The notes under the pieces: model-generated
The model's input: the letters and a program-made list of their open reading frames with translations, nothing else
Databases searched by the model: none
What the model was told of the DNA's origin: nothing
Shown: positions 2,975 to 60,184 of the stretch, one piece after another
How positions within the stretch are numbered: the first letter of the stretch is position 1
Layout of the letters: every line of letters begins with the position of its first letter
Position numbers and translations under genes: made by a program
Virus record (IMG/VR): IMGVR_UViG_3300028591_000006
Span: 1-64,000 of that record
Reading direction: 5' to 3' (one strand)
DNA from: a virus
Taxonomy: Duplodnaviria > Heunggongvirae > Uroviricota > Caudoviricetes
DNA length: 64,000 nucleotides

Positions 2975-4306
2975 TTATATCCAAAGTGCTCCACGAAGAT
3001 TCTCTCTGCTGCGGAACTCAAGTTTAGCACCGTCCTGTTTGAATCCGTCCTGTTCAAATACAATGAAGTATTTCGTATTATAGATTGCTACCAGGATTGC
3101 AACATGACCATATTTATTTGTCTTGGAAGAATCCCAAATAAGGATATCTCCCTTGTCGTAATCTGCGGTAGGACTATCAACAGTCTTTTTGAGATTGGTA
3201 CACTTATCAAAAATATCCTTAGCTCCACCTTCTGCTCCTAATGCAGGGAATTGGTCTACACCAAGTACATCATGCACATACTGTCTCGCCAGGTCTACAC
3301 AATTATGAACCTTATAGTTATTACAAATATAAGTATGTGTATTGTCAGTTTCGAAATTATAAACCTCAGCTTTGAAAGTCTCGCTTATTTTCACCCTTTT
3401 GTTCATACGTTTTGTAGATTTACAAAGAGACAATCTATAAATTGGTTTTACAGATTTCACTTGTTTACCTCGAATAAAAATAGGTTCCGAACTTCTTTTC
3501 GAGATACGAATAGATTTATTTACATAACCCAACTTGATAGCAATTGCCTGTAAGCTATAAATTAAAGAAGGACTCGTGTTCATTAGTACAATCGTATTTC
3601 CTTTTTTATATCCATCAGCCTCAATAAACCCGTTAAGAATCAACTCAGATTCTCGATTACTAAAAATTAGAGGTAATTTTTTATATTCTCCTCGACATTG
3701 TTCGAGAATGATTTTAGTAAGCAAGGGATGCTCACGTTTAGAAATTGCTCCAACAAAAGCATGTTCAGATTCATGATGTGGTCTTTCAGAAGAGAGCATG
3801 TTGAGAGAATGTACAAAATCAACTTTCTTTTCTCCAAAAGTTAATCTTATTTCATCTGTTTTATTATCTTTATGTCTACCAATATTTCCATCTCCTAACC
3901 AGAATCCTAAAAATAAAAGTTCATTATCAGTAAGACCTGTCTCATCAAAACACTCCTTATCATAAAGAGATGCTAGTTTTGTTTTCAATTCTACTGCCGG
4001 AGAAAATGTTCCATCTTTGAAATAGAATGGGTGGTCAGGAGTTACGCAAAAATCACAAAGAGGTGTTCTAATGTTTACAACCTCTTTAATACTCTTGAAT
4101 GTTTTAGTAACTGTATTAACTTCATTATCATATCCGATTACTTTATCTCCAACAACAATATCCTGAATTGGTTTATAAGTCCAGTCAGCCATAAGAATCA
4201 TATGGTTTTTAGTGAAACACTGAAAACTCTTGTCACCTTTGAATACATCATCTTTATAATCAACCTTTTTACCTTTGTAAGTTTTAATAAACTCAGTTAG
4301 ATTCAT
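2975..4306 (-). CDS. CHAP-domain peptidoglycan hydrolase (endolysin-like) interrupted by a HINT+LAGLIDADG intein
   Basis: The extein is about 137 aa: MNLTEF...GDKSFQ | CVDLARQYVHDV...GHVAILVAIYN, which matches CHAP motifs Q-C-V-D and a downstream His. The intein spans residues 30-335: CFTKNHMILMAD...VGDKV (block A), CVTPDHPF (block B), LLFLGFWLGDGN and ELILNGFIEADGY (two LAGLIDADG motifs), and it ends ...YKVHN|C. Confidence 0.8.
   Translation of the reverse strand: MNLTEFIKTYKGKKVDYKDDVFKGDKSFQCFTKNHMILMADWTYKPIQDIVVGDKVIGYDNEVNTVTKTFKSIKEVVNIRTPLCDFCVTPDHPFYFKDGTFSPAVELKTKLASLYDKECFDETGLTDNELLFLGFWLGDGNIGRHKDNKTDEIRLTFGEKKVDFVHSLNMLSSERPHHESEHAFVGAISKREHPLLTKIILEQCRGEYKKLPLIFSNRESELILNGFIEADGYKKGNTIVLMNTSPSLIYSLQAIAIKLGYVNKSIRISKRSSEPIFIRGKQVKSVKPIYRLSLCKSTKRMNKRVKISETFKAEVYNFETDNTHTYICNNYKVHNCVDLARQYVHDVLGVDQFPALGAEGGAKDIFDKCTNLKKTVDSPTADYDKGDILIWDSSKTNKYGHVAILVAIYNTKYFIVFEQDGFKQDGAKLEFRSRENLRGALWI
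3302..4219 (-). mobile_element. intein (HINT splicing domain plus LAGLIDADG homing endonuclease) at the catalytic Cys of the CHAP domain
   Basis: Begins with Cys (TGT at 4219-4217) and ends HN (3307-3302), followed by the +1 Cys (3301-3299), which is the CHAP active-site Cys. Confidence 0.75.
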
Positions 4307-9754: not shown

Positions 9755-9940
9755 TTAAATTCCTTTACGTGCATAGCTGTAGTCCTCATTGATATAATAT
9801 TTACCAAGGGCAAGTTTTTCATTTTCCTTACTGGCTCTTACCCTTTTCAGCACATTAATATCCGGTTTATCAAGATGTACCAGATACCGTCTTCCTTCGT
9901 CAGGAATCTCAATAATTTCCATTGTTCCTATAGTTTTCAT
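9755..9940 (-). CDS. small protein (62 aa); probable true start MKTIGTMEII
   Basis: ATG at 9940. The TATAAT box at 9956-9945 lies 7 nt upstream, suggesting a leaderless start. The longer track ORF reads through the promoter. Confidence 0.35.
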   Translation of the reverse strand: MKTIGTMEIIEIPDEGRRYLVHLDKPDINVLKRVRASKENEKLALGKYYINEDYSYARKGI

Positions 9941-9944
9941 ACTT

Positions 9945-9956
9945 TTAATTATAGAA
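9945..9956 (-). promoter_or_regulatory. phage promoter motif (-10 TATAAT), 7 nt before ATG 9940
   Basis: TTCTATAATTAAAAGT-ATG. Confidence 0.45.
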
Positions 9957-9968
9957 AACTGACAGGAC

Positions 9969-10045
9969 AAAAAAAACCCTACAGTATAGTTTAGGAGTAA
10001 TACTGTAGGGTTGCAAATTATGAATCATGAAATTATTCATTTGTT
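9969..10045 (-). ncRNA. candidate small RNA 1 (about 77 nt): promoter c, then hairpin, then U-tract
   Basis: A -10 box (TATAAT, 10058-10063 on the minus strand) lies upstream. The 13-bp perfect hairpin aaccctacagtat/atactgtagggtt (9975-10012) has minus-strand loop UACUCCUAAACU and is followed by U8 (plus-strand A-run 9969-9976). Confidence 0.45.
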
Positions 10046-10051
10046 TCTAAC

Positions 10052-10079
10052 TTAATTATAGAAACTCTGATTTTCTCAG
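10052..10079 (-). promoter_or_regulatory. phage promoter c (CTGAGAAA-N-TTCTATAATTAA)
   Basis: Full bipartite motif; 13 nt between CTGAGA and TATAAT. Confidence 0.55.
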
Positions 10080-10164
10080 AAAAAAAGAAGGGTTATCTGA
10101 CCGGGTGGGAGGGAAAAGGTCAGATAACCCAAAACCTTCAGGAGGTGCCAAAATGTCAAGGCAT
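10080..10164 (-). ncRNA. candidate small RNA 2 (about 85 nt): promoter d, then single-stranded CACCUCCU, then 13-bp hairpin, then U-tract
   Basis: Promoter motif at 10171-10198. The minus-strand transcript contains GGCACCUCCUGAAGG (10149-10135). The hairpin gggttatctgacc/ggtcagataaccc (10090-10130) is followed by U7 (plus-strand A-run 10080-10086). Confidence 0.45.
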
Positions 10165-10170
10165 CATAAT

Positions 10171-10198
10171 TTAATTATAGAAAGGAATGTATTCTCAG
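10171..10198 (-). promoter_or_regulatory. phage promoter d (CTGAGAAT-N-TTCTATAATTAA)
   Basis: Full bipartite motif. Confidence 0.55.
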
Positions 10199-10203
10199 TC
10201 AAT

Positions 10204-10260
10204 AAAAAAGACCCTACAGTATGTAGGAGTATACCATAGGGTCAAAGAGTTTATAATGAC
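10204..10260 (-). ncRNA. candidate small RNA 3 (about 57 nt): promoter e, then hairpin, then U-tract; paralog of sRNA 1
   Basis: Promoter motif at 10267-10301. The hairpin gaccctacagtat/ataccatagggtc (10210-10243, two internal mismatches) has minus-strand loop ACUCCUAC and is followed by U6. Confidence 0.4.
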
Positions 10261-10266
10261 TAGTAT

Positions 10267-10301
10267 CTTAATAATAGAATGTGCCTTTATTTCGCTCTCA
10301 G
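10267..10301 (-). promoter_or_regulatory. phage promoter e (variant: CTGAGAGC...TTCTATTATTAAG)
   Basis: Variant of the motif, immediately downstream of the terL stop. Confidence 0.4.
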
Positions 10302-10377
10302 ATTGCGTATAACACGTTCTACAGGCTCTGGTAATGATATTTGTCGATTGAGTGCATTTGAACGCAATACAGAGCCT

Positions 10378-12234
10378 CTATGGCTCAAATGGAGCATATT
10401 TATCATCAAGTCCATATAGGTCATTTTGGAACAACGCTATCTCATCTTCAACATCATCTTCAGTTCCGGTTATATCTATCGAACTGTAAAATCCGTCGTC
10501 CGGTATGCTCATCTTTTCCGTTTCCTTTTCGATAAGCATTTCCTCATAATGTACATGTTCATTCACATATATCAACTGAGTTGCTGCAGCGAAACAGTCC
10601 GAACAGTCCTTGAAATATACAGGATGATTAGGGTCAGTATTATGCGGATGGTCTACCTTTCCGGTCGCACGGTCATATAAAAGATTAGACAATTCGTATT
10701 CAAGCTGCTTATAGTACGGAATACTGTAACGCTTAAGTTTCATGAAGTTCAGTGTTGTAAGGTATGCTGCTGGAGTTACATCAACCGAATAATAATCTGA
10801 ATACTCATTACCGAATATCTTCTTGCATTGCGGAATAAGATAATCCTTTGCATATCTATCACCACTTATGAACTTAAAATTTACACCATTATCCCTCATA
10901 TAAAGAATCAGTTGCAGTATCTTTTCCTGGTCTATCTGATTGTCGTTTATCTCTTCATTAAGGAATAATGATGCGGTCAGTAATGAACGGATTTTGTTTT
11001 CTTCACGGTCATAATATAAAGCTGAGAATCCTGTATGGTCATGTTTCTGCGATGCATCTATATGCAGATATACGTTCTCTCCATGGTAATGTTCCATGGC
11101 TCTGTCAGCATTCCAGATAAGGAAAGGACTGTTCTGGTCATATATACCAATCTCAGGTATCTCGGTCAGTAACGGAGACTTCTCGTCATTCCATAAGTTC
11201 TTTATGATACTGCTATTATTGATAAACTTGTTCGTTCCCGTCTGTACCTTACCGGACATATTAGCAAGGGAGAATGAAATGTCTTCTTCATAGAATTTAC
11301 GGATGGATACCGGCACAGGCTCAATAAGGTTCGGATGGTCTTCTACGAACTGGTCAAGAGTCTGTCCGTAAGTATCCGCTATCTGAGTCTTTATCGCACT
11401 ATCAGCCTGGTCAATAATAAAAGGTGCTATTGTTCCATTACCTATAAATACATTGAACTTTTCCTTACTGTACTGCTCAGGGTTAGCCTCATATACGGAT
11501 GCTTCCATAATGGCTGTATCACCATCTTTCTTTGCCTTTTCAAGTTCAATTGCTACAAATGAAGATGATGTAGTTGAAGATGAGATAATGCCGCTGAATC
11601 CGCCCCATATACCGTTCTTACTGAATGTCATTACTGAACGCTGACGCATTTCCTGGAACATCTTCTGTGTTTCTTCTACTTCAGTTCCTTTGGCTACCTT
11701 TCGTACATTCGCCTCATCCAATACACACCCGAGCATATCTTCACCGACAATATGTTCAACCTGAGAACCAGGAAGTATCTCGCAGAAAGGAAATATAAGT
11801 TCAGTTTCAACATCCTTACGTTTCAAACCTGGCAACTGCCAATATGGAACGCTATCAATATCTTTTATAAGCTGCTTGAGACCGGTTGACTTTGATTTAC
11901 TAAGAGTATATGACAGCCAGAATATCTTTGGTGTTGTATTAGGGTCAAGTCCGAACAGACAGGGAAAGTTCTTCCAGCAGCTCATTTCATATAGGATACG
12001 CTGAATGAGTTTACGGGCACCATATGACTTTCCAGTACGTGATGCTCCGGTTGCTATGAACTTTCTCTTTGGTACTGTAAGACCCATCTCGTTTACATAG
12101 GTCGCATTGTTGAATTCCTCTATGAACTCCCTTACATACGGTCGGATATAGTTTGCCGAAGGTCCGACATAAAAGGGGTCTTGTATCCAGTCGGATATCG
12201 GCACAATCTCTCGAATTTGTTCCGCACGAGTCAT
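10378..12234 (-). CDS. terL: terminase large subunit
   Basis: Walker A (KRKFIATGASRTGKS), Walker B-like (VLDEAN), and a C-terminal nuclease-type region (VYLHIDASQKHDHTGFSALYYD). 618 aa, comparable to T4 gp17. SD aaggaga upstream. Confidence 0.7.
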   Translation of the reverse strand: MTRAEQIREIVPISDWIQDPFYVGPSANYIRPYVREFIEEFNNATYVNEMGLTVPKRKFIATGASRTGKSYGARKLIQRILYEMSCWKNFPCLFGLDPNTTPKIFWLSYTLSKSKSTGLKQLIKDIDSVPYWQLPGLKRKDVETELIFPFCEILPGSQVEHIVGEDMLGCVLDEANVRKVAKGTEVEETQKMFQEMRQRSVMTFSKNGIWGGFSGIISSSTTSSSFVAIELEKAKKDGDTAIMEASVYEANPEQYSKEKFNVFIGNGTIAPFIIDQADSAIKTQIADTYGQTLDQFVEDHPNLIEPVPVSIRKFYEEDISFSLANMSGKVQTGTNKFINNSSIIKNLWNDEKSPLLTEIPEIGIYDQNSPFLIWNADRAMEHYHGENVYLHIDASQKHDHTGFSALYYDREENKIRSLLTASLFLNEEINDNQIDQEKILQLILYMRDNGVNFKFISGDRYAKDYLIPQCKKIFGNEYSDYYSVDVTPAAYLTTLNFMKLKRYSIPYYKQLEYELSNLLYDRATGKVDHPHNTDPNHPVYFKDCSDCFAAATQLIYVNEHVHYEEMLIEKETEKMSIPDDGFYSSIDITGTEDDVEDEIALFQNDLYGLDDKYAPFEP

Positions 12235-12695: not shown

Positions 12696-12750
12696 ATTTT
12701 AGTATCTGTTATAATATTTACTAAAGTATTTTAGTATCTGTTACGATAAT
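12689..12750 (+). promoter_or_regulatory. sigma70-type promoter for the plus-strand cassette, with a duplicated 17-mer operator-like element
   Basis: TTGACA (12689-12694), 15-nt spacer, then TGTTATAAT with the TATAAT hexamer at 12710-12715. TATTTTAGTATCTGTTA occurs twice, at 12695-12711 and 12727-12743. Confidence 0.6.
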
Positions 12751-12826
12751 AAAAGTATGTCGGATATCCGGTCATAAAGGGAAGTATGACCGAATTTGAA
12801 ATATTTATAATAATAGGTGGGAAATT

Positions 12827-13012
12827 ATGTATTATCTTCTTTTAATTGCTTTAATGCTCAGTGCCGGTTTGTTTGTATTCTTTACAGACAAAAGTCTTCA
12901 GTTTCGAAAGGTAAAAGAACTTCATAAGTCAAATATTGCATTTAATCTCAGCATGATTAGTGGAATAATTGGTGTTCTTATGATTCTTATACTTATTTTT
13001 GTAGGAGAATAA
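12827..13012 (+). CDS. small membrane protein (61 aa); plus-strand early cassette gene 1
   Basis: Two hydrophobic helices. Lies downstream of a sigma70-type promoter. Confidence 0.45.
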   Translation: MYYLLLIALMLSAGLFVFFTDKSLQFRKVKELHKSNIAFNLSMISGIIGVLMILILIFVGE

Positions 13013-13015
13013 ATT

Positions 13016-13261
13016 ATGCGGATGAATGAACTTACACAGTCAGAACGTGAGTTCCTTGACAGAGTAAATGAACTAAACCAGAAATATTGCAGCGATAAGG
13101 ATATTTCCTTATGGAATGTCTGCAAGGGTTATCTGACCGGAAAGATAAAGGACGACTTTCTTGATTTACCGGAAGAAGAAATCGAAAATGTTCTGGCTGA
13201 ACTTAATGGTGAGCTGCATATAAGTAAGACTATGAAAAAGGCATCAGCCATGCTATTCTAG
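13016..13261 (+). CDS. hypothetical protein (81 aa); plus-strand cassette gene 2
   Basis: SD (aggaga) before the ATG. Confidence 0.45.
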   Translation: MRMNELTQSEREFLDRVNELNQKYCSDKDISLWNVCKGYLTGKIKDDFLDLPEEEIENVLAELNGELHISKTMKKASAMLF

Positions 13262-13290
13262 TTATATATTACTGTAAGGAGGAATTTCTT

Positions 13291-13530
13291 ATGAAAGAAA
13301 CCTTTTTCATGCTTAAGAACAACAGTAAGTCCGAAGGAACTTACCTGATTGATGGAGAATACAAACCTATTTATCCGGGTGAAACCATCACTCTTAAGAA
13401 ATCGCCTGTCAATCATACAAGTAATGTATCAGTAGTTATCTACCGAAAAGACACAGGTAATAATGAGATTCTTTACAAGAAACCTGTAAAAGCACAGGAA
13501 GAACCTAAGAAGAGTAAAAAGAATTCTTAA
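13291..13530 (+). CDS. hypothetical protein (79 aa); plus-strand cassette gene 3
   Basis: Strong SD (taaggagga). Followed by an intrinsic terminator. Confidence 0.5.
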   Translation: MKETFFMLKNNSKSEGTYLIDGEYKPIYPGETITLKKSPVNHTSNVSVVIYRKDTGNNEILYKKPVKAQEEPKKSKKNS

Positions 13531-13537
13531 GTACAGA

Positions 13538-13572
13538 CCCGTAACCTTTATGGTTGCGGGTTTTCTGTTTCA
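13538..13572 (+). terminator. intrinsic terminator after the plus-strand cassette (possibly bidirectional)
   Basis: 10-bp stem acccgtaacc/ggttgcgggt (one G·U) with loop TTTAT, followed by TTTTCTGTTTC. Confidence 0.5.
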
Positions 13573-20313: not shown

Positions 20314-20335
20314 AAGAACTCCTAATTATAAATTA

Positions 20336-20424
20336 CTCGGTGGGCAGGATTCGAACCTACACAATTCATGTATGAATCACCAGAATCAAAATCTGGGGAG
20401 ATACCAATTACTCTTTACCACCGA
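20336..20424 (-). tRNA. tRNA, anticodon UUG (Gln-type), with an unusually long (about 19 nt) variable arm; 89 nt
   Basis: Acceptor stem TCGGTGG/CCACCGA. Anticodon arm CCAGA-UUUUGAU-UCUGG, with the anticodon at plus positions 20387-20389. T-arm GTAGG-TTCGAAT-CCTGC. CCA is not encoded. Confidence 0.6.
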
Positions 20425-20498
20425 AAGATATATAATATATAAATATTAGAACCTTATTAAAAGCCGTTGGCTTACCGCTTGCCGACGACCCACTATAC

Positions 20499-20528
20499 TT
20501 ATAATTATAGAAAAATCCTAATTCTCAG
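20499..20528 (-). promoter_or_regulatory. phage promoter upstream of the tRNA
   Basis: CTGAGAAT-13-TATAAT. Confidence 0.55.
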
Positions 20529-26702: not shown

Positions 26703-27675
26703 TGTTTTTCTCCTTCATACTTTGTCTATGGCGTTTCATAGACTCACTTATTTTCTTTCTGGTTTCAGGGCTAACAGTTCTTAATTTTCCAATTTCTCGT
26801 AATTTTTGTTTAGTTTCTTCAGAATGATGCTTTCCATAAAAATGATTCTTTTCACCCAAAAGACTTTCACTTATTTTACGTTTACTTTCATCAGAATGAT
26901 GTTTACCCTTTATCCAAGGTATTTTCCCTTTATTTTTCTCACTTAATATCTTTTTTCGTTCTTCCGGAAATTCCCTATTTTCCCAATATTTCAACCTAGA
27001 TATTCTCATTCTTTCTTTTTGTTCTTCAGTACGTTTCTTACCTTTATTTTTTTCAGCAATCTTATTAACGATTTCTTCGGAACGTTTCTTTCCAAGATTT
27101 GAATTTATCAAGGCTTGTTTATGTTCTTCAGATAAGGTATAACCATTCTTTTTTCTAGTTATCCAACCTCTTTTCGATTTTTCTGAACAGTCTTGCTTTA
27201 ATAGACTATTTGAAAGTTTTTCTTTACTTTCATTCTTCATAGGAATACTTTTATTCCAGGTTGGTTTACCTATATGTGAATTAGACATCTTTTTCTTAAC
27301 ATCTGAAGAATTTAATTTTTCAATTATCTTCTTGCGAATTTCTAATTTTTCTTCAGGTGTCAAAAATTCTAGGGAATATCCATGACCTCCTTCAGCAATA
27401 TTATATTCTGCTTTACCAATACTTTTGTATAAAGAAATATATGAAGTTTCAAGAATATCAATTTCTTTTGAAGAATGACATATTGCTAATATTTCCTTAT
27501 CAAAGTTATTAATACCATATTTATTTTCAGCCCGAATTATGTATTTTCCAGACCCCATATATCCATCGGTTAATGGCGTAACAACTCTACGTTTATATTT
27601 TCGCAAACGTCTTTGACCAACATAATTCTTACCATTAATTTTGTTTGTTATAAGATAAATATAATAAGTTTCCAT
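26686..27675 (-). CDS. GIY-YIG homing endonuclease with NUMOD3-type repeats (start trimmed to METYYIYLITN)
   Basis: YYIYLITNKINGKNYVGQ...R...GYMGSGKYI is a GIY-YIG core. The C-terminal half carries repeated basic modules of the form HSDESKRKISESLLGEKNHFYGKHHSEETKQKL. Inserted between the clamp-loader and clamp genes. Confidence 0.8.
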   Translation of the reverse strand: METYYIYLITNKINGKNYVGQRRLRKYKRRVVTPLTDGYMGSGKYIIRAENKYGINNFDKEILAICHSSKEIDILETSYISLYKSIGKAEYNIAEGGHGYSLEFLTPEEKLEIRKKIIEKLNSSDVKKKMSNSHIGKPTWNKSIPMKNESKEKLSNSLLKQDCSEKSKRGWITRKKNGYTLSEEHKQALINSNLGKKRSEEIVNKIAEKNKGKKRTEEQKERMRISRLKYWENREFPEERKKILSEKNKGKIPWIKGKHHSDESKRKISESLLGEKNHFYGKHHSEETKQKLREIGKLRTVSPETRKKISESMKRHRQSMKEKNNGIIQ

Positions 27676-33525: not shown

Positions 33526-33605
33526 TCATAATACCAGAAGCGGTTAATAATTCTTTCTCAAGTCTTTTGCCTATATCTTCTTCACTCATTCAATATACTC
33601 CTACA

Positions 33606-34097
33606 TTAAATAATTTTCTTAAAAATATACTGACAATGTGGACCAGAGTTTATATAATCAATTACATAAGGTTTACCTTTTGTAATATCACCATAAGTAA
33701 CTTCAGAATCATAAGGAATATAAAATTCAATCTCATGAGTTTTCAGACCACTCCATATATACAATAATAGCTTACATTGTGCTGAATTTTCATATGAAAC
33801 AATCTTATAATCTTTTAATTTACCTTTCCATTTATAATAACAATCCGCACCCATTGAATTAGCATAATGTTCTTCAATTTTCACAAGTGCATATCTTTTA
33901 AGAGTGCGAATAGCATTTCGTAAATGGTGTTTATCAAAATACATACAATTATTCCTTATCACATGCCTTTTCGTCAGGGTCATAGATTGCCATCTTACAA
34001 CCTTTCTTTCCAATATCAACAGTAAATTTATCAATAAGTTTTTCTCTAGGAAATTCTTCGTAAATCGTGTTAATTGCAACAGAATAACCTTCAACAA
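33606..34097 (-). CDS. hypothetical protein (likely shorter; start near MTLTKRHV)
   Basis: Minus-strand ORF. Confidence 0.35.
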   Translation of the reverse strand: MLKVILLQLTRFTKNFLEKNLLINLLLILERKVVRWQSMTLTKRHVIRNNCMYFDKHHLRNAIRTLKRYALVKIEEHYANSMGADCYYKWKGKLKDYKIVSYENSAQCKLLLYIWSGLKTHEIEFYIPYDSEVTYGDITKGKPYVIDYINSGPHCQYIFKKII

Positions 34098-45784: not shown

Positions 45785-47410
45785 TTAAGCAACATAATTC
45801 TCAAGTTCATGATTTCCGGCAAGCGGAATATCATAACGTACAGTATGTTCAAAATCTTCTGCAACTTCAGTGTAATCAAGACCTTTCCACTTTATCTTTG
45901 ATTCACCAAAACGCATTTTAAGCAGCTTTATTTTATCTCCTATCTCGGCAATTATTTCTTCCCAGGACTTGTATCCGCCAAACTTCATGGCAGAATTCTT
46001 GAACCAGTTTACAGTCTTTACCGTATCCATTACAAAAAATATCGCCATATAAGAATATAAAGTTGGTCGGCTGATTCCAAAAATTTTTGCAATCTCAGTC
46101 AGAGAATAATCGGCTGCAAGAAGAGCCATAAAGTTCTTCTTCATCTTCTTGGCACGTTTAAGCTTCTCTGAACGCTGATTGCGGTTCCAGTATACCGAAC
46201 TTTTCCACTGTCCGTTACTTTCGTTCTTGTCCTTATAGTTTGTTACAGACCATCTGTAAAGCGAATGAACCTGACCGGAAATCTCCTTATCCGAGTGCGG
46301 CTCTTTCATGCACTTGTCTGCAATCTCAATTTTATTTTCAAGAAGGAAGTCTTCCAAATCTTTCTCAGACGGAACGTTTCCCTTTCTCATATTGCTCCAC
46401 ATCCATTCACGTGCATAAATCATAGTCAGCTTATGACGTGAAAGTTCAGGATTCTTTTCGTCAATATCCTGTACATCAAGATTAATGTTCTTTCTCAGAA
46501 TGACTTTCTTTTCATCAAGGAAGTTTATATAATCTGAAAAATCATTACCAGCCGGTCTTCTCTCCCTTAAACTTATAAATCTGTTGTTTACAAAGAGATA
46601 AGACTCCTGGCACACATTAAAAGGATTGCGGCACATTGTACCCTGATAATAAAGGTCAGTACCGCTGAATATTCCCTTAAAATACTTGGCAAATCTTTTT
46701 ACTGTCCGGATATAGACATCGTGGTTTCCTTCATTGCGTTTCACAGTCGGAATATATTTACCATTGGCATTCTTTTCACTTAAATCAATTGTCTTTACAT
46801 ATACCGGATTCTTAAGATAGAACTGTATCTGCCAGTGTCCTGTGCTGATATGTCTTGTGCAAAGACACTCAGGAATATCTCCAAGACTACGCAGCTTATC
46901 AAAGAAAGTCTTTACATCAATTCTCTGGTCAATATCCACGGCAATAAGGTCTTTACGCATTGAAGACTTGCCGCATTCAGCCATAGGAAACATGCTGTAT
47001 TTTCTGTATATACCAAGAAGGCTCTTGAAGTCTTTTTCAGAAGGTCTCAATGTTTCTGTCGTATGCACACGCATAGGACTTCCTTTCTTGGTTTCCTTCA
47101 CGAGAAAACTCATCTGCATGGCATCAGCCAGTTTCTCATAATGCGTTTCATATACTTCAGAATCTCCGATAAGGTCCGGGTCTTTTACAAGATTAAAAGG
47201 ATTTGTTACTGTAGTGAATTGTATTTTATTGGATTTCTTTATATAATTCTTATAACATTTCGTTCGCAGACCGTCAGATTTTCCAACTTTTTCCTGGCGG
47301 TCTTTTTTATTTTCTTCAGCACAATCCATATTTATAATTATAGAATTATCTGATTTTTCGAGGATATTGATATTTTCAGGAGTTTCCGTTATATAATTAA
47401 GACAGTCCAC
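45785..47410 (-). CDS. putative AEP-family primase (PrimPol-like); real start may be the internal ATG at 47330
   Basis: LIAVDIDQR (AEP motif I, DxD), STGHWQIQF (motif II, sG.H) and GNHDVY (motif III). The promoter motif at 47334-47362 lies inside the annotated N-terminus. Confidence 0.4.
   Translation of the reverse strand: MDCLNYITETPENINILEKSDNSIIINMDCAEENKKDRQEKVGKSDGLRTKCYKNYIKKSNKIQFTTVTNPFNLVKDPDLIGDSEVYETHYEKLADAMQMSFLVKETKKGSPMRVHTTETLRPSEKDFKSLLGIYRKYSMFPMAECGKSSMRKDLIAVDIDQRIDVKTFFDKLRSLGDIPECLCTRHISTGHWQIQFYLKNPVYVKTIDLSEKNANGKYIPTVKRNEGNHDVYIRTVKRFAKYFKGIFSGTDLYYQGTMCRNPFNVCQESYLFVNNRFISLRERRPAGNDFSDYINFLDEKKVILRKNINLDVQDIDEKNPELSRHKLTMIYAREWMWSNMRKGNVPSEKDLEDFLLENKIEIADKCMKEPHSDKEISGQVHSLYRWSVTNYKDKNESNGQWKSSVYWNRNQRSEKLKRAKKMKKNFMALLAADYSLTEIAKIFGISRPTLYSYMAIFFVMDTVKTVNWFKNSAMKFGGYKSWEEIIAEIGDKIKLLKMRFGESKIKWKGLDYTEVAEDFEHTVRYDIPLAGNHELENYVA
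47334..47362 (-). promoter_or_regulatory. phage promoter inside the annotated primase N-terminus, 7 nt before the internal ATG 47330
   Basis: CTCGAAAA-14-TATAAT then TATAAAT-ATG. Confidence 0.4.
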
Positions 47411-47612
47411 GAAATAATCTTCCTATTTTGTGAGATTAGAGAAGTATTGGTACTAGACATACCGGTACTTCTCGTTTTTATTTAACCCTAATTTATACCC
47501 TATCCATAATAAAATCAATACATTTCATACAGAATACGCATAATAACGGATATTCAGCCGCATATAAGAGCTATATTATTCATATAGGGGTTTACACTTC
47601 ACCTAGTTTTAT

Positions 47613-47689
47613 AAAAAAAAGAACTACCGGAGTAGGAGTTCCAGTAGTTCAAACAAGATGAATTTATACTTTGTAAAGAACAAGTATTA
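47613..47689 (-). ncRNA. candidate small RNA 4 (about 77 nt) with the same ACUCCUA loop
   Basis: A -10 motif (TTCTATAATTAAG, 47696-47707) lies upstream. The hairpin 47621-47650 (10 bp including one G·U) has minus-strand loop AACUCCUACU and is followed by U8 (plus-strand A-run 47613-47620). Confidence 0.4.
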
Positions 47690-47823
47690 TTTATCTTAAT
47701 TATAGAAATTGTATAAGACTGATATATTCGTTCTGAGAGCCTTTATGGGCATTGGTAATGATATTAGTCGATTTAATGCAGAAAGTCGCTCAGAAACAAT
47801 CCTAGGGGCATTATAGACCAAAT

Positions 47824-48303
47824 TTAGAAGGATAATTCTTTCTTCAAATCAGCATTGTTTGTTGGTTTAAGAAAATATGTCCTTTTAAGTACCTGACCCA
47901 AACCATCATCCTTAATTGCAGCAACGACAAATATCATATCACCCCAGATACTTGTAGCACCCGGAATGGCTGTACGGATATAATCATTTTCATGGAGCGG
48001 AACATCTGATTTTATGAAAGCTGAGCATAATTCTTCAGAATCTTCAGGAAACCAGTTGAAATGATAAAACGTTGATTTGGATATCGTGAAGTTTATCCAG
48101 ATACGTGACTCATAACGCTGATATTTATTACCGAGAACCTTATCGCTGTCGAGTTTTTTCACTTCATCATAATTTACATCTTCATATCCGAGATTAGTCT
48201 GGTTTGACGGAGTAAAAATGGATGCCGGTTGACCCCAGATAGAAAGCTGCCGGTCCATAAACTCGATATACTGCTCATAATTTATGAAGTTTTCGATACT
48301 CAT
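47824..48303 (-). CDS. hypothetical protein (159 aa)
   Basis: Minus-strand ORF. Confidence 0.4.
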   Translation of the reverse strand: MSIENFINYEQYIEFMDRQLSIWGQPASIFTPSNQTNLGYEDVNYDEVKKLDSDKVLGNKYQRYESRIWINFTISKSTFYHFNWFPEDSEELCSAFIKSDVPLHENDYIRTAIPGATSIWGDMIFVVAAIKDDGLGQVLKRTYFLKPTNNADLKKELSF

Positions 48304-49120: not shown

Positions 49121-50158
49121 TTACTCTTTAGTTTTTCTTTTCTTACCCAAATTGAACTGTCTTAATTTTTCTTTAGTTTCTTCTTTCATTGGTAATTTCC
49201 CTCTAACAAATCCTTCTGGACATTTGAATGATTGGACTTGTTTGATTCCATTGTTCCACCATTTCATACCGGTATTACCAACATTATTAAAATTAATTCT
49301 TCCAGGAACAAACCCTGGCGGACACTCTTTACCACGATAATTTTCTTTCCCATTATTGTACCAGTGGGTGTTAACCAAGTTATCTTTAGGTTTACCTGTA
49401 AGAGATTTTGATAAACGTTTTCTGTGCTCTTCTGAAAATTTTCTACCAGTCAATGCAAGAATCATTCTTTCTCTCATTTCAGGTGTCCATTTCCTACCCT
49501 TAGCTTTCTCAGACATTTTCCTACGAGATTCTTCGCTAAGATGTCGACCTTTATTAATGTCAGACATTCTTTTTCTAAACTCTGGATTCTTTCGAGAAAT
49601 TTTATATTTTTCTGAGTTCTTAACTTTTTCACCTGTCTTTTTTCGTTCTTCAGGATTTTGATATCTCTTTTTAACTATTTCTGACATCTTTCTTTTAGTT
49701 TCTAAATTGGCTTTGTGTCCTTTGTTCGGAGAAGGTCTACCCTTTAATTTCTCAGAAATATTTTTACGTTGTTCTTCGGTAATTATTTTTCCTTTGTTTG
49801 CAAGACTTATTTTACGTTTAATTTCAATTTGTCTAATTTCGGAAAGATATAACCAATTACCTTTTCCACCAAGACCACCCGGTGCAATATTAAATTCCGC
49901 TTTTCCAATTTGTTTATACAAACGAATATACTCGATTTCGAGAATATCTAATATTTCTTGTGTATAACAAATTGCTAAAATTCTCTTAGAGAAATTCTCA
50001 ATACCATATTTCTTTTCAGCAGCAAGAATGTGTTTTCCTTTACCCATATAAGAAGTGTCAGTTTCCGGAGTTTTATTCAAAGGACAATGACGCTGACCAA
50101 TATAATTTCTTCCATCACCATTATAGGTAATTTCATAAATGTAATATGTCTGTAACAT
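49121..50158 (-). CDS. GIY-YIG homing endonuclease with NUMOD3-type repeats (paralog 2; start trimmed to MLQTYYIYEITYN)
   Basis: YYIYEITYNGDGRNYIGQ...SYMGKGKHI is a GIY-YIG core. C-terminal half carries repeated basic modules of the form SEEHRKRLSKSLTGK. SD aaggaga before the ATG at 50158. The track ORF's N-terminal extension translates the structured leader. Confidence 0.75.
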   Translation of the reverse strand: MLQTYYIYEITYNGDGRNYIGQRHCPLNKTPETDTSYMGKGKHILAAEKKYGIENFSKRILAICYTQEILDILEIEYIRLYKQIGKAEFNIAPGGLGGKGNWLYLSEIRQIEIKRKISLANKGKIITEEQRKNISEKLKGRPSPNKGHKANLETKRKMSEIVKKRYQNPEERKKTGEKVKNSEKYKISRKNPEFRKRMSDINKGRHLSEESRRKMSEKAKGRKWTPEMRERMILALTGRKFSEEHRKRLSKSLTGKPKDNLVNTHWYNNGKENYRGKECPPGFVPGRINFNNVGNTGMKWWNNGIKQVQSFKCPEGFVRGKLPMKEETKEKLRQFNLGKKRKTKE

Positions 50159-55462: not shown

Positions 55463-57424
55463 CTATTTTCTCCATACATTTGCACAATAATTATCAAGGG
55501 CACCATTCATATAGTTATAAAGATATGTGCAGACATCAGCCTTACTTGTAAGGTGGTGATTGCCGCATTCATCAATATACAGATTATTAACATAAGAGAT
55601 AGACGCAAGGTCGAGGTCTCCGGCTGTAATTTCCATTCCCTTTGTACAGTAGATAGGGAACTTGAAGTTTACGCCATCACCTTCTGCATGTTTGGAACTG
55701 TTTACATAATCTTTATGCAGATTCTTCTTGTCTTCCATAATGACAAATCCGGATAAATCCATAGGAGCGTCACGTTTTACAGCGAATGAAGAATAAACCT
55801 GTTTAAGTGTTACAGGATTGCTGATTTCCCTAATAACAGATTCCTTTCCGTCATTAGTCAGGGCAGACACGATTTCCTTAGCATCTTTCTTTTCGATAAG
55901 ACCATTGAGAACCATAACACGTGTATCTTCTGCAAGGATTTCTTTCTGAAAAGAATTGAACTTACCTTTACGGAAAGATGTTCCAATCATCATAGAACCG
56001 TCTTCAGGAACTCCAAGGTCTTTGTCAGCTTCCATAAGTTTCTCAGAATCAACACCATAATTAGCAAGTGCATCACCAAGCAGAGCCTTTACAAGATACT
56101 TTTTATTGAAGTCAGCCTGCATATTGTTCAGACTGTCTGTAATCTCTTTAAGGTTTTCAACAGCGAGTTTAAGTGTTTCTCCCTTGTCCATATCTTCAAG
56201 CATTGTCTGAGATACTGTAAGGTAAGACCAGTCATTCTTTGTTATGTTATATCCGAGAGAACGTAAATGCAGATAGTCGATGTTCTTAAGGGCATTAAAA
56301 GCTGAGAATGAAACAGCCTTACATACTTTTGCAAAACGCTTATCCCAGGTAATTGCAGCACTATCACCAAGACTGCTTGGAGTATCTGAACTGAATCCAA
56401 TCATACTTGGCTGTAACTGAAGTGCTGAGAAAAGTTTCTGATACTGAACATCAAGGTCTTTGAGAGATTTAACATCAATCTCACCGCCAATGTTCTGAAC
56501 ATTTACACCCTGATTCTGTGTCTGCGGAATGATTACTTCAAAGTTCTGGTTATTACCACGTGAACTCATTCCGTCAGAATCATAAGATACACGTCTTACT
56601 TTCTTGAAAAGGTTACGGTAATAGTTAAGAACCTGGATTGCAGACTTACTGTAAACCTGACCACCAACATTTACAGAAATAATTCTATAGTAGTTGCTCT
56701 GGTCCATACGATTAAGGAGTAATGCATCTTCGATTATGTTTACATTTCTCCATGGCTTACTTGCAGCTCCAAGATAACTGTTGGCATAGGTGAACTCATT
56801 CTGAAACTGATTGCTCTGGTCATTGTTTGCACCACCAATAGTCATTGATGTATTCTGGGTATTACCGCCAAGGTTCTTGTAATATTCAAGCTGAGAATAG
56901 GTATATTCGTAAGAAGGAACAAAATCACCTTTCTCATTCATAAATCCGATTGTCTTTCCGGATATGATTACAGGGGTGATGGATGTAAAGTCAGGAATAG
57001 GCACTACCCTTTCAAGTACACCATCTTCATTATAAATGTGTTTCCAGGGCAGCTGACCCCACAAAAGGTTGTTATAGCCATCTGTAAGGATAAAGTTGTC
57101 AGCATTAATTTGGTCATGAAAAGCGTCAAGTTCCTGTTGAATTACTTCATAAGGTGTATTGAGTTCAAAAAGTTTGTTTTCAGAGTTTGACTGAAAGGCT
57201 GTCTGCATAACGCATTTTACAGCTGCTGAACAGATAGGGTCTTCATTCATTGCTGTCACATCTTTGAGCGAATTCAAAATAGATTTTGTCATCGCATTGT
57301 TGACAGAATAGTTCGGGTAATTATTGAATTCCTCTACCTTGTTAAAGAGTTCTTCTTCCTGTTCAGGAAATATAAAATGTTTTACTCTTGCCGGAAGTGT
57401 CTGTTTTGTTTTATTTGTAGGCAT
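55463..57424 (-). CDS. large virion structural protein (653 aa), portal-like candidate
   Basis: Size, Asn/Gln-rich composition and position in the structural block. SD is sequestered in a leader hairpin. Confidence 0.3.
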   Translation of the reverse strand: MPTNKTKQTLPARVKHFIFPEQEEELFNKVEEFNNYPNYSVNNAMTKSILNSLKDVTAMNEDPICSAAVKCVMQTAFQSNSENKLFELNTPYEVIQQELDAFHDQINADNFILTDGYNNLLWGQLPWKHIYNEDGVLERVVPIPDFTSITPVIISGKTIGFMNEKGDFVPSYEYTYSQLEYYKNLGGNTQNTSMTIGGANNDQSNQFQNEFTYANSYLGAASKPWRNVNIIEDALLLNRMDQSNYYRIISVNVGGQVYSKSAIQVLNYYRNLFKKVRRVSYDSDGMSSRGNNQNFEVIIPQTQNQGVNVQNIGGEIDVKSLKDLDVQYQKLFSALQLQPSMIGFSSDTPSSLGDSAAITWDKRFAKVCKAVSFSAFNALKNIDYLHLRSLGYNITKNDWSYLTVSQTMLEDMDKGETLKLAVENLKEITDSLNNMQADFNKKYLVKALLGDALANYGVDSEKLMEADKDLGVPEDGSMMIGTSFRKGKFNSFQKEILAEDTRVMVLNGLIEKKDAKEIVSALTNDGKESVIREISNPVTLKQVYSSFAVKRDAPMDLSGFVIMEDKKNLHKDYVNSSKHAEGDGVNFKFPIYCTKGMEITAGDLDLASISYVNNLYIDECGNHHLTSKADVCTYLYNYMNGALDNYCANVWRK

Positions 57425-58788: not shown

Positions 58789-58843
58789 AGAAAAAAAATA
58801 AAAAAAATAAAAAAGTGCATTGTTTGGGTAAGAAACAATGCAC
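58789..58843 (-). terminator. strong intrinsic terminator downstream of the capsid candidate
   Basis: 11-bp perfect stem gtgcattgttt/aaacaatgcac (58815-58843) with loop GGGTAAG, followed by a roughly 25-nt U-rich tract. Confidence 0.7.
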
Positions 58844-58876
58844 TAGAGCAAAATTATGAATTAAGTAGGAGGCTAC

Positions 58877-60184
58877 CTAATTTACGATAACTTTAGTGAG
58901 CGAGTTGAATACGCCCTTCTGGTCATTGATTCCAAAGTCAGCAAGAATCTTCTTGCATTCAGAACCGATAACCTTTCCAACCTTATTTGTCATGTTTACA
59001 GGTTTTTCTGAAACAGGAACAAACTCACAGCAGTTGCTTACGATACATGCAATTGCCGGGTCTTCAATATGGAATGAAAGTCCACTTTCAAGTTCACTGA
59101 GCATATATCCTTCTCTCTTGAGAGAGCTGCGGATTTCTGACAAATCAGGAACCATACGGAACTTTGCTACGCTTGTACTGTTGCACAATTCGCAGAGAAT
59201 AGACTTATTTGAATCCATCTGGAATGTAACATCTGTAGCATTACGCAGATACTTCTGGAATACATTCTTATACTCAAGACTTTCATTCATCTTTGCAGAA
59301 AGAACGATTGCCGGAGTTTCATAAGCAATTACCTGTTCCATAGCTGATAGACACAATCCGTCAGGGTACTTGGTGTCAACATAGTTGTTGATTGCTTTTC
59401 TTCCGGAAACAGAACTGAAAATCTGTTTACCCTTTGCAGCATAAGGATTCTTTGTACGCATTGTACCTGAAGTAACGTTTCTGCGAGCCGGTGTATTGTA
59501 AGCAAAAATCTTGTTGCAGTCTTCTTCAAAGTTAATCTGATTAACCTTGTCGGCAGATGAACAGCAGAATACACCTACGACAGATTTACCAACATCATTG
59601 ATACATTCTGAACGTGGTGAAACGGCATAGTCATCAATGTTTGCTGAAGAACGGAGAAGAGTGAGTTCAACATCCATTTCAGCACAAGATTTCAGCGGCT
59701 CTCTGTCGTGGATGCTGTATGCTGAAAATCCATCAAGCATAACCAGAGCGTCATCAGCATTTACCATACGAGCGTCTTCATAATAAGAAAGAACAGCCTT
59801 TGGATTAGAACCTTTTACAGTCCATTTTCTTCCAGCCGGGTCTTCAAGAATAACAGAGTTTCCGATAACCTTTGTAGGAACAAAGAAAACATTATCATAC
59901 TTGTTCGACTTGATTCCTTCTTTTGTCTGAATACCGAAAAGTGACTGTACAATATAGCGGTGAAGAACTTCATCAAGACGACCTGATTCAATCTCCATAA
60001 TGTTATTCTTTTTCTGATTGTAAATCAAAGCACCGCCTTTGTCATTCAGTCTTACAGAAACAATGTTTCCTTTGTACTGAATGTCGTAGCCGTTTTCGAG
60101 TATTATTGCATCATCCACCAGACCTTTGTCTGACAGAGCTTTAATATAATTATCTGTACGAATCATTTGTTTTCTCCTTCGCAA
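58877..60184 (-). CDS. major capsid protein candidate (435 aa)
   Basis: Large ORF followed immediately by the strongest intrinsic terminator in the window, which suggests abundant expression. No sequence motif recognised. Confidence 0.3.
   Translation of the reverse strand: MRRRKQMIRTDNYIKALSDKGLVDDAIILENGYDIQYKGNIVSVRLNDKGGALIYNQKKNNIMEIESGRLDEVLHRYIVQSLFGIQTKEGIKSNKYDNVFFVPTKVIGNSVILEDPAGRKWTVKGSNPKAVLSYYEDARMVNADDALVMLDGFSAYSIHDREPLKSCAEMDVELTLLRSSANIDDYAVSPRSECINDVGKSVVGVFCCSSADKVNQINFEEDCNKIFAYNTPARRNVTSGTMRTKNPYAAKGKQIFSSVSGRKAINNYVDTKYPDGLCLSAMEQVIAYETPAIVLSAKMNESLEYKNVFQKYLRNATDVTFQMDSNKSILCELCNSTSVAKFRMVPDLSEIRSSLKREGYMLSELESGLSFHIEDPAIACIVSNCCEFVPVSEKPVNMTNKVGKVIGSECKKILADFGINDQKGVFNSLTKVIVN

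Follow-up and report, generated by a model that had tools for sequence, protein, structure and literature searches.

Tandem promoter-terminator units downstream of terL in an uncultured tailed phage: candidate CU-rich small RNAs complementary to Shine-Dalgarno sequences

We analysed a stretch of 64,000 nucleotides (nt) of a tailed phage of the Caudoviricetes (positions 1 to 64,000 of the IMG/VR record IMGVR_UViG_3300028591_000006, called the window below) and found that the spacer downstream of its large terminase gene, terL, holds three consecutive minus-strand units, each consisting of a predicted phage promoter, 60-90 nt and an intrinsic terminator. An earlier note made from this DNA had described these three tandem units and a fourth one at 47613-47707, and all four are present. 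Our preferred reading, held tentatively and stopping a little short of probable, is that the units are phage small-RNA genes of the CU-rich, Shine-Dalgarno (SD)-pairing kind known from low-GC Gram-positive bacteria. The anatomy of the units, their strand, the enrichment of their motifs and the pattern of their conservation can be read from the DNA itself.

The units were named in the order of transcription, unit A being unit 3 of the earlier note, unit B its unit 2 and unit C its unit 1. The label terL for the 618-amino-acid (aa) open reading frame (ORF) at 10378-12234(-) is acceptable because this ORF aligned in tblastn with annotated Vibrio phage large terminases over 88% of its length (24-25% identity, E 2e-23); it had no sequence match in Pfam, PHROG or PDB. 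From its stop codon to the following gene, which starts with the ATG at 9940, the spacer measures about 440 nt. ORFs of any length in the window lie on the minus strand, the only plus-strand module being that at 12700-13563.

Examination of the promoters showed that each unit has one, as had been claimed, while an upstream box at the consensus spacing is present only in units B and C. The consensus is CTGAGAAT-N11-TATAAT and not the N13 spacing first given for it. In unit A the upstream box stands at a non-consensus spacing (CTGAGAGC-N17-TATTAT), and unit 4, without a TGAGAA box at the consensus spacing, has the extended -10 element only. All 9 copies of the pattern TGARAA-N12-TATWAT in the window lie on the minus strand, when 0.24 copies were expected. 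For the extended -10 element TCTATAATTAA, with a single mismatch allowed, there were 21 copies against 5.5 expected, 18 of the 21 on the minus strand. The whole phage promoter of about 35 nt has at least 15 copies in the window, and no other part of the array is better conserved. From the U-tract of each terminator, the next consensus promoter is reached within 10-25 nt. The predicted promoter-terminator anatomy of the units cannot be chance, and the suggestion that they are simply stacked terminators was set aside, since consensus promoters precede each terminator and this arrangement is kept in relatives.

The results of the folding analysis showed strong hairpins with exposed loops, as had been described. 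The minimum free energy (MFE) was -18.4 kcal/mol for unit A, -28.5 kcal/mol for unit B, -21.9 kcal/mol for unit C and -20.3 kcal/mol for unit 4, with z-scores against shuffles of -3.93, -4.37, -6.54 and -5.34, respectively (-3.9 to -6.5 overall), and the loops of all four units were predicted to be unpaired. The hairpins of units A and C proved to be paralogous, with a common 3' arm, in agreement with the earlier note. Only the minus strand carries promoters and U-tracts. G-U pairs are present in the unit A stems of the window and of the related loci L001 and L002, and in the unit B stems of L001 and L205; a plus-strand transcript would have A-C mismatches in their place. The minus-strand orientation was therefore upheld and the objection that the array could be transcribed from the plus strand does not apply.

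The position of the hairpins could also be explained by control in cis, in which they would be regulated terminators or attenuators setting the read-through from terL or from internal promoters, and the motifs would be antiterminator sites or take part in alternative pairing. The hairpin of unit A doubles as the first terminator past terL and that of unit 4 terminates the upstream tail-gene block; a conserved motif, AUUUGCRUCC, abuts the terminator of unit C, and the downstream gene begins right at the last promoter of the array. We judge this explanation very unlikely, for no alternative antiterminator pairing was evident in the folds, the downstream operon has its own consensus promoter past the last terminator, which makes control of read-through unnecessary, and the loop of unit B also occurs where a terminator is absent (L007 and L164, described below).

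The mRNA of the gene that starts at 9940 is probably leaderless, and the leaderless arrangement of the last promoter of the array was also found in L002 and L206. The same layout was observed elsewhere in the window, the first genes at the starts 9940, 40630, 47327 and 30907 beginning 6-7 nt past a -10 element (TATAAT-N6-7-ATG). The mRNAs of these first genes are probably leaderless, while internal genes have strong AAGGAG SDs.

The four units are distinguished by short CU-rich motifs. In the window, CTCCT occurs 26 times in the sense orientation and 78 times on the antisense, SD-bearing strand, and 4 of the 26 sense copies fall inside the 312 nt of the units, where 0.13 would be expected. The heptamer ACTCCTA has four sense-strand copies, three of which lie in the unpaired hairpin loops of units A, C and 4. 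Both statistics are post hoc, the motifs having been picked after the data were seen, and units A and C are paralogous and so not independent. UCCC or CU-rich motifs were found in unpaired loops or linkers of the units (UUUUCCCUCCCACCC, ACUCCUAC and UACUCCUAAACU in the window, a linker in L205 and L206, a loop in L213); the terminator loop of unit B, UUUUCCCUCCCACCC, contains UCCC twice and was predicted to be unpaired. A census of terminators showed that CUCC loops are limited to the four window units and the homologs of unit B, with none among the approximately 38 other hairpins listed for the clade. This census, with a read-out of the loops, replaced a covariance model; MAFFT had placed the arms of unit 4 out of register in the alignment of the ACUCCUA hairpins.

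A further sense-strand CCUCC in non-coding RNA was observed in the 3' untranslated region of the gene at 58877-60184, at 58810-58880(-), where a small hairpin, UUAGGUAG-CCUC-CUACUUAA (GCCUCCUAC), precedes the terminator at 58815-58843. Downstream of unit 4, a long non-coding stretch contains a plus-strand promoter-hairpin unit at 47390-47480(+), with TATATAATTAA at 47390-47400. The RNA expected from it, about 80 nt long, has a predicted fold of two hairpins (MFE -28.8 kcal/mol, z -6.27); the first has the CU-rich loop AUCUUCC, and the second, at 47439-47474, is followed by U5. It is a candidate for a fifth small RNA, on the opposite strand.

Table 1. Coordinates of the units and associated elements in the window
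Feature	Position	Strand	Description
Conserved box AATCGACAAATATCATTACCA	10329-10349	-	terL 3' region, upstream of unit A promoter, just past terL stop codon
Unit A	10204-10276	-	-10 element TATTATTAAG (TATTAT) at 10271-10276; about 25 nt of predicted transcript before the hairpin
Unit A hairpin	10210-10243	-	13 bp, loop ACUCCUAC; U6 tract at 10204-10209
Unit B	10080-10197	-	Predicted bipartite promoter TGAGAA-N12-TATAAT at 10174-10197
Unit B CACCUCCU	10140-10147	-	Within small hairpin ACCU-CCUGA-AGGU
Unit B terminator hairpin	10090-10130	-	13 bp, 15-nt loop UUUUCCCUCCCACCC; U-tract at 10080-10089
Unit C	9969-10078	-	Predicted bipartite promoter TGAGAA-N12-TATAAT at 10055-10078
Unit C motif UAAUUUGCAACC	10009-10020	-	Conserved, adjoins the hairpin
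Unit C hairpin	9977-10010	-	11-13 bp, loop UACUCCUAAACU; U8 tract at 9969-9976
Fourth promoter of the array	9940-9953	-	-10 element at 9948-9953, drives the downstream gene; ATG 9940 is 7 nt past the -10 element
Unit 4	47613-47704	-	-10 element TATAATTAAG at 47699-47704, U8 tract; layout as unit A
Unit 4 hairpin	47621-47650	-	11 bp, loop ACUCCUAC
Second copy of box AATCGACAAATATCATTACCA	47753-47773	-	Precedes unit 4, just past the stop codon of gene 47824-48303

We then compared the spacer with fourteen related phage loci, collected from IMG/VR, JGI metagenomes, ENA and Logan with terL as an unbiased anchor, a terL search having given 115 homologs; no cultured phage had nucleotide similarity to the window. 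The array is kept at 91-93% terL identity, with three units in L001 and L002 and four units, each with its own promoter, in L205 and L206. In these four loci, as for all units of the window, a promoter of the unit's own and a Rho-independent terminator were recognised at the sequence level. Across the relatives the slot after terL holds from zero to four units and the downstream genes differ.

Comparison of the homologs of each unit showed that different parts are kept in different units. In the homologs of unit A the stem family or the position is kept while the loop changes: L001 and L002 have a homologous stem with a GUC loop, and the loops are UUUUUCAUCUUG in L205 and AUUUCCUAACAUACUUUCC in L206. 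In the homologs of unit C the position, the promoter and the motif AUUUGC[A/G]UCC are kept and the hairpin differs in each lineage, this motif standing directly before unrelated hairpins in L001, L002, L129 (62% terL identity), L205 and L206. At the site of unit 4, L133 has a reverse-strand ORF of 142 aa in place of the promoter and hairpin, with both flanks kept.

In unit B it is the loop that is conserved, and this unit, which the earlier note had treated as the exception of the array, turned out to be its conserved member. The loop core CCCUCCCAC(C/A)C was found in seven sequences (the window, L001, L002, L205, L206, L007 and L164/L177) and is invariant in them save for one substitution, on six distinct stems whose six loop-proximal bases have a mean pairwise identity of 33%. 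Two of the seven carriers, L007 and L164/L177, are tRNA-like folds and not terminators. The loop hairpin of L007 is the long arm of a cloverleaf-like fold beside a tRNA-Asn, between the capsid genes and terL; in L164/L177, a phage that shows no similarity to the window in tblastx, a hairpin resembling a T-arm comes after it. The IMG/VR scans for this loop were made by loop sequence alone, and most of the matches were due to chance, in high-GC or coding DNA. The second scan (TTCCCTCCCACCCG) gave four distinct matches in low-GC DNA (<0.40), and in two of these the motif coincides exactly with the loop of a hairpin of at least 6 bp.

The other CU-rich segments are conserved in kind and vary in form, an exposed (C)ACCUCC(U) or CCCUCCC returning in post-terL units of different structure. 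ACCUCCUGAAGGU, the small 5' hairpin of unit B, is present in the window and in L002, and L001 has an equivalent small hairpin with a compensated stem (GUCU-CCUAA-AGAC). The exact CACCUCCU was found in the window and in L206. L205 and L206 carry AACACCUCC(U), noted also as ACACCUCC, in the single-stranded linker of a separate unit, and in L213 CCCUCCCAAUAA (CCCUCCC) forms the 12-nt loop of a 5' hairpin. L003, L117, L207, L209 and L210 have a single, different unit with GCUACCUCC[C/U]G, in which the motif lies partly in the stem and partly in the loop, so that not all of it is exposed. The earlier proposal of an anti-SD small-RNA family was thus sustained insofar as CU-rich motifs mark exactly these units and recur in the relatives, but not as a family defined by ACUCCUA. 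In units A, C and 4 the ACUCCUA loop is a recent, lineage-specific variant of the CU-rich theme, probably spread by the copying of one hairpin, since units A and C have a common 3' arm.

Under the reading that we prefer, the spacer would be a cluster of very short, independent transcription units making non-coding RNAs of 60-90 nt which end in terminator hairpins. The feature under selection would be a short, exposed CU-rich motif resembling the anti-SD sequence (CCUCC, CUCCU or UCCC), placed in a loop or in a single-stranded linker, and the remainder of each RNA, stems included, would turn over fast. We infer that the units are transcribed, that their RNAs pair with the purine-rich ribosome-binding sites (GGGUGGGAGGG-like) of host mRNAs, phage mRNAs or both, and that this pairing would alter the translation or stability of the targets, by analogy with LhrC1-5, RsaE/RoxS, RNAIII, SprD and FsrA. 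Unit B, whose terminator loop has UCCC twice and whose 5' region carries CACCUCCU, would be the conserved core member.

A comparison with the known small RNAs (sRNAs) of this kind was informative. The multicopy sRNA LhrC carries CUCCC motifs in loop A, in the linker and in the terminator loop, each of which binds the SD region of lapB, and the UCCC motif acts likewise in RNAIII, RsaE, SprD and FsrA (PMC4132741). UCCC loops pairing with SD regions are standard in sRNAs of low-GC Gram-positive bacteria, and the mechanism is not undescribed, as the earlier note had it. Like LhrC1-5 and the other UCCC sRNAs, the units are short, have their own predicted promoter and intrinsic terminator and are present in several copies. 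Unit B shares with LhrC a three-site layout, with CUCCU in a 5' hairpin and UCCC twice in the terminator loop. Unlike LhrC, the units are four different RNAs and not near-identical copies, they lie after terL in an uncultured phage with a T4-like portal and not in a bacterial chromosome, and the unit B loop is also carried by tRNA-like scaffolds.

Pairing of this sort may also be used in cis in the clade, where ACUCCUAU lies opposite AUAGGAGU in the terS leader of L117, L207, L209 and L210. In the same four loci we observed AUACUCCUAUUAUAG about 80 nt before UAUAGGAGUG-N9-AUG in the leader of the gene upstream of terL (L117 ~150-300, L207 ~1890-2000, L209 ~1390-1500 and L210 ~240-350), a leader which is a possible cis anti-SD sequestering hairpin.

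The loops of the units were scanned by duplex energy against 100 translation-initiation regions. The mean pairing energy of the loops ranged from -7.8 to -8.6 kcal/mol at translation-initiation regions and from -5.1 to -6.7 kcal/mol at internal coding sites, and about one third of the translation-initiation regions of the window paired at -9 kcal/mol or better. The window has a GC content of 31-41% and strong AAGGAG-type SDs before most of its genes; complementary sites are therefore plentiful. The pairing check against phage translation-initiation regions which the earlier note had called for thus gave the SD preference, but a generic one, which a shuffled loop reproduces.

Several observations weigh against the units being SD-pairing sRNAs. 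When the loop of unit B was shuffled, it paired with translation-initiation regions as well as the real one (-8.5 versus -8.2 kcal/mol), so the scan cannot discriminate between models, and an SD complementarity of 6-8 nt is short and generic. No extended target of the unit B loop (GGGAGGG or GUGGGAGG) was found in the examined DNA of the unit B carriers. The promoters and terminators of the units are predictions from sequence. The best Rfam match to the units, the LhrC covariance model, stayed below threshold (19.3 bits against a threshold of 110, E 2.2); in the whole window nothing but tRNA reached the gathering thresholds, and searches of 9900-10420 and 47300-47860 that admitted E up to 5 gave no significant match. 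The portal protein has its nearest cultured counterparts in Bacillus, Listeria and Streptococcus phages at only 23-24% identity. The units are dispensable, as judged from the compared loci: L208, L211 and L212, and relatives at 60-70% terL identity, have none past terL. The ACUCCUA loop was found in the window genome only and in no homologous unit of the relatives. The wholesale replacement of the stems could be a process at the level of DNA (templated or quasi-palindrome correction) and not the result of selection on RNA pairing.

A match inside the window weighs in the same direction. The 3' arm of unit B with its flanks (CCGGTCAGATAACCCTT), at 10086-10102(-), is identical over 17 of 17 nt to positions 13124-13140, in the plus-strand ORF 13016-13261 (blastn-short E 2.6e-4), and the unit B RNA is thus perfectly complementary to the mRNA of this ORF over 17 nt. 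L001 keeps the gene sequence of 13124-13140 and has a different unit B stem. The identity may reflect a templated copy or an antisense target; it has no co-variation in L001, and 13124-13140 was not retained as a specific antisense target.

The ORF belongs to the plus-strand module at 12700-13563(+), which comprises three small ORFs (61 aa with two transmembrane segments, 81 aa and 79 aa) and its own terminator at 13535-13563(+). Two copies of a direct repeat, TAACAGATACTAAAATA, lie at ~12700-12760, in the divergent region ahead of terS. The module looks like an operator-controlled moron.

The variability of the spacer is also what would be expected of cassettes like the PeSLs of T4-type phages. 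These are composites of promoter and stem-loop which act as promoters and terminators and mediate shuffling (PMC2839356, PMC4122927). According to such a reading, a terminator hairpin and a consensus promoter would together insulate transcription units and provide patches of homology for the insertion and deletion of genes; the tandem units would be empty leftovers of recombination, their transcripts by-products and their CU-rich motifs without RNA function. We regard it, the chief competitor of the small-RNA reading, as a real possibility, if not a likely one. The units and PeSLs are alike in being intergenic and hypervariable, with a repeated consensus promoter adjacent to a stem-loop terminator, and in that close relatives differ by insertions and deletions, genes being gained or lost at the cassettes. 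The spacer is hyperplastic, with zero, one, three or four units past terL and varying next genes; the site of unit 4 was swapped for an ORF in L133 between kept flanks; the many copies of the promoter outdo every other part of the array in conservation; and units look fused or split between strains, unit B of the window combining the CACCUCCU of U2 of L205 and L206 with the hairpin of their U3. ORFs of the HNH/NUMOD3 endonuclease type stand right after terL in L001, L003, L207 and L210, accompanied by a duplication of the terL 3' end.

The differences are nevertheless considerable. PeSLs flank ORFans, while no conserved ORF was found between the units, which have the order promoter, 60-90 nt and terminator without an ORF; their transcribed parts contain conserved motifs, which are not reported for PeSLs, and their promoter has an upstream box 11 nt from the -10 element in place of a -35 element. 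Cassettes also fail to explain an 11-nt loop that is invariant over six unrelated stems, two of them tRNA-like and one in a dissimilar phage, the persistence of 10-12 nt (AUUUGCRUCC) before unrelated hairpins down to 62% terL identity, and the fact that, of about 45 terminators, these units alone have CUCC loops. The cassette and small-RNA readings are compatible and may coexist.

Inspection of the ORFs right after terL gave a further observation on the spacer. They encode about 200 aa on the reverse strand (L001 5857-6453(-), L003, L207 3851-4474(-) and L210 3135-3749(-)), with a His-rich HNH-like motif and repeated NUMOD3-like motifs, and it is the last ~30 nt of terL that are duplicated on their far side. 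Such an ORF looks like a homing endonuclease that invaded the post-terL spacer.

The conserved box that precedes units A and 4 (Table 1) has two exact-pattern copies in the window against 0 expected. L205 and L206 likewise have it past terL, and L133 has it past the gene neighbouring the unit-4 site (~3033-3053). L001 and L002 have its core (AAATATCATTACC) in inverted orientation, and reverse-strand genes were seen inserted beside the box in L001 and L133. This suggests a DNA-level site for protein binding or recombination and not an RNA element. The two copies in the window gave no significant fold (z -0.3 to -0.6).

The model first put forward for this array was that sRNAs with ACUCCUA loops titrate the AGGAGUA core of a start module, AAGGAGUAACUAUG, and bring about a timed shut-off of early or host translation. 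The concentration of sense-strand ACTCCTA in the loops of units A, C and 4 agrees with it, and the reuse of the start module was confirmed, the junction module GGAGTAACTATG being present in 4 copies when 0 were expected. Moreover, the loop of unit C contains UUACUCCU, an 8-nt complement of AGGAGUAA, which occurs in the 12 copies of AAGGAGTAA (10 on the minus strand), and the loop of unit A is complementary without mismatch, over 13 nt, to the ribosome-binding site at 33594-33606. Conservation of the ACUCCUA loop in related phages had been set beforehand as a test of this model, and it was not observed: the loop is missing from every homologous unit, other loops being present in the homologs of A and C and an ORF at the unit-4 site of L133. 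The units, the proposed early targets (the GGAGUAACUAUG genes and the operon with the AAGGAGUAACUAUG genes) and the tRNA gene all have promoters of one class, which is absent from the structural block at 51-64 kb, so that sRNAs and targets are not offset in time. The pairing is generic and extends to structural genes, for example the portal start at 57424. The 13-nt match has a BLAST E of only 0.04 within the window alone, and 33594-33606 was rejected as a specific antisense target. The three loops are not independent, the hairpin of units A and C having been copied recently. Shut-off of early genes is therefore weak as a proposal, and of all the explanations weighed here we hold this model to be the most improbable.

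T4 inactivates early mRNAs with RegB, an endoribonuclease that acts through GGAG Shine-Dalgarno sequences. The analogy of the units to RegB is functional only, RegB being a protein nuclease and not an antisense RNA.

The behaviour of the unit B loop could also mean that the exposed C-rich loops, instead of being antisense seeds, are recognised by a protein or act as decoys, for instance as mimics of the 16S rRNA 3' tail (CACCUCCU). The loop is invariant on interchangeable scaffolds (terminator hairpin and tRNA-like fold), no extended complementary target was found in the examined phage DNA, and CACCUCCU is exact in both the window and L206. We consider this quite improbable: there is no candidate binding protein, the variation of the motif (CACCUCCU, ACCUCCC, CCCUCCC, CUCCUAA) exceeds what is usual for a specific protein site, and an 8-nt identity with the anti-SD sequence is within the reach of chance for CU-rich seeds. 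A distinctly unlikely, though consequential, variant is that of a portable RNA module, in which the 11-nt CCCUCCCAC(C/A)C loop and CACCUCCU, identical to the 16S rRNA 3' tail, would be carried by a terminator or tRNA-like scaffold and act on a conserved host component. Possible targets would be a specific G-rich host RNA, a protein recognising the 16S 3' end, or a bias from SD-led messages toward the leaderless first genes of the phage. If true, the module would be a new class of phage RNA for host takeover or anti-defence and not an ordinary antisense regulator.

Around the tRNA-like carriers of the loop, the regions of L007 and L164 gave tRNAs only (Rfam with E up to 5, ARAGORN). A segment of about 75 nt (CUCCUAAAUGGG ... 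hairpin ... AAGCGAAAGCGAGUCG), apparently structured, is common to L007 (2960-3090) and L164 (2500-2620), phages otherwise without detectable similarity, and lies upstream of the tRNA or tRNA-like element that bears the C-rich hairpin. It had no Rfam match, and an exact 16-mer scan of IMG/VR gave no further clear members. Phage T4 makes small stable RNAs of unknown function, species 1 and 2 (band C and D), which are processed from tRNA clusters. The C-rich hairpin in a tRNA-like fold near a tRNA or tRNA-like element in L007 and L164 brings these RNAs to mind, while the hairpin of the window differs from them in having its own promoter and terminator and no tRNA features.

Other identities were tried for the units and rejected. 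A small protein was rejected for unit B, whose only frame has 3 codons (ATGATGCCTTGA) and lies inside an insertion limited to the window, and for unit C, whose 31-codon frame has no SD and no counterpart in L001 and L002. A CRISPR repeat or RNA anti-CRISPR was rejected as there was no match to a CRISPR-DR family and stems of 11-13 bp are unlike CRISPR repeats. A known RNA family was rejected, for Rfam and ARAGORN gave tRNAs only, and a literature search for the unit B loop sequence returned nothing relevant. The tRNA called in the window is a tRNA-Gln(UUG) of 91 nt, with an insertion, at 20335-20425(-); it has a consensus phage promoter with its -10 element at 20504-20509, and a fragment resembling a tRNA 5' half (UGGGUCGUCGGCAAGCGGUAAGCCAACGGCUUUUAAUAAGG) precedes it (20335-20510).

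Two further features of the window were recorded. The 443-aa protein encoded at 2975-4306(-) matches Hint and LAGLIDADG domains (intein) and has a C-terminal CHAP domain; the gene is probably interrupted by an intein. The repeat finder gave a direct repeat of 182 nt with 71% identity, at 27380-27561 and 49869-50050, 22.5 kb apart.

The small RNAs of lytic phages are poorly catalogued and their targets are mostly unknown. The units are most likely a new, uncurated set of RNAs working like a known class. If RNAs are made from them, this would be a clear example of a phage with a cluster of small RNAs that are CU-rich and complementary to SDs, the counterpart of the multicopy LhrC/RsaE-type regulators of Gram-positive bacteria; if they are only terminator and promoter cassettes, modular shuffling of the PeSL type would extend beyond the T4 group. 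The combination of an invariant 11-nt loop, freely changing stems and scaffolds and a spacer that gains and loses units provides a signature for searches of metagenomic phages.

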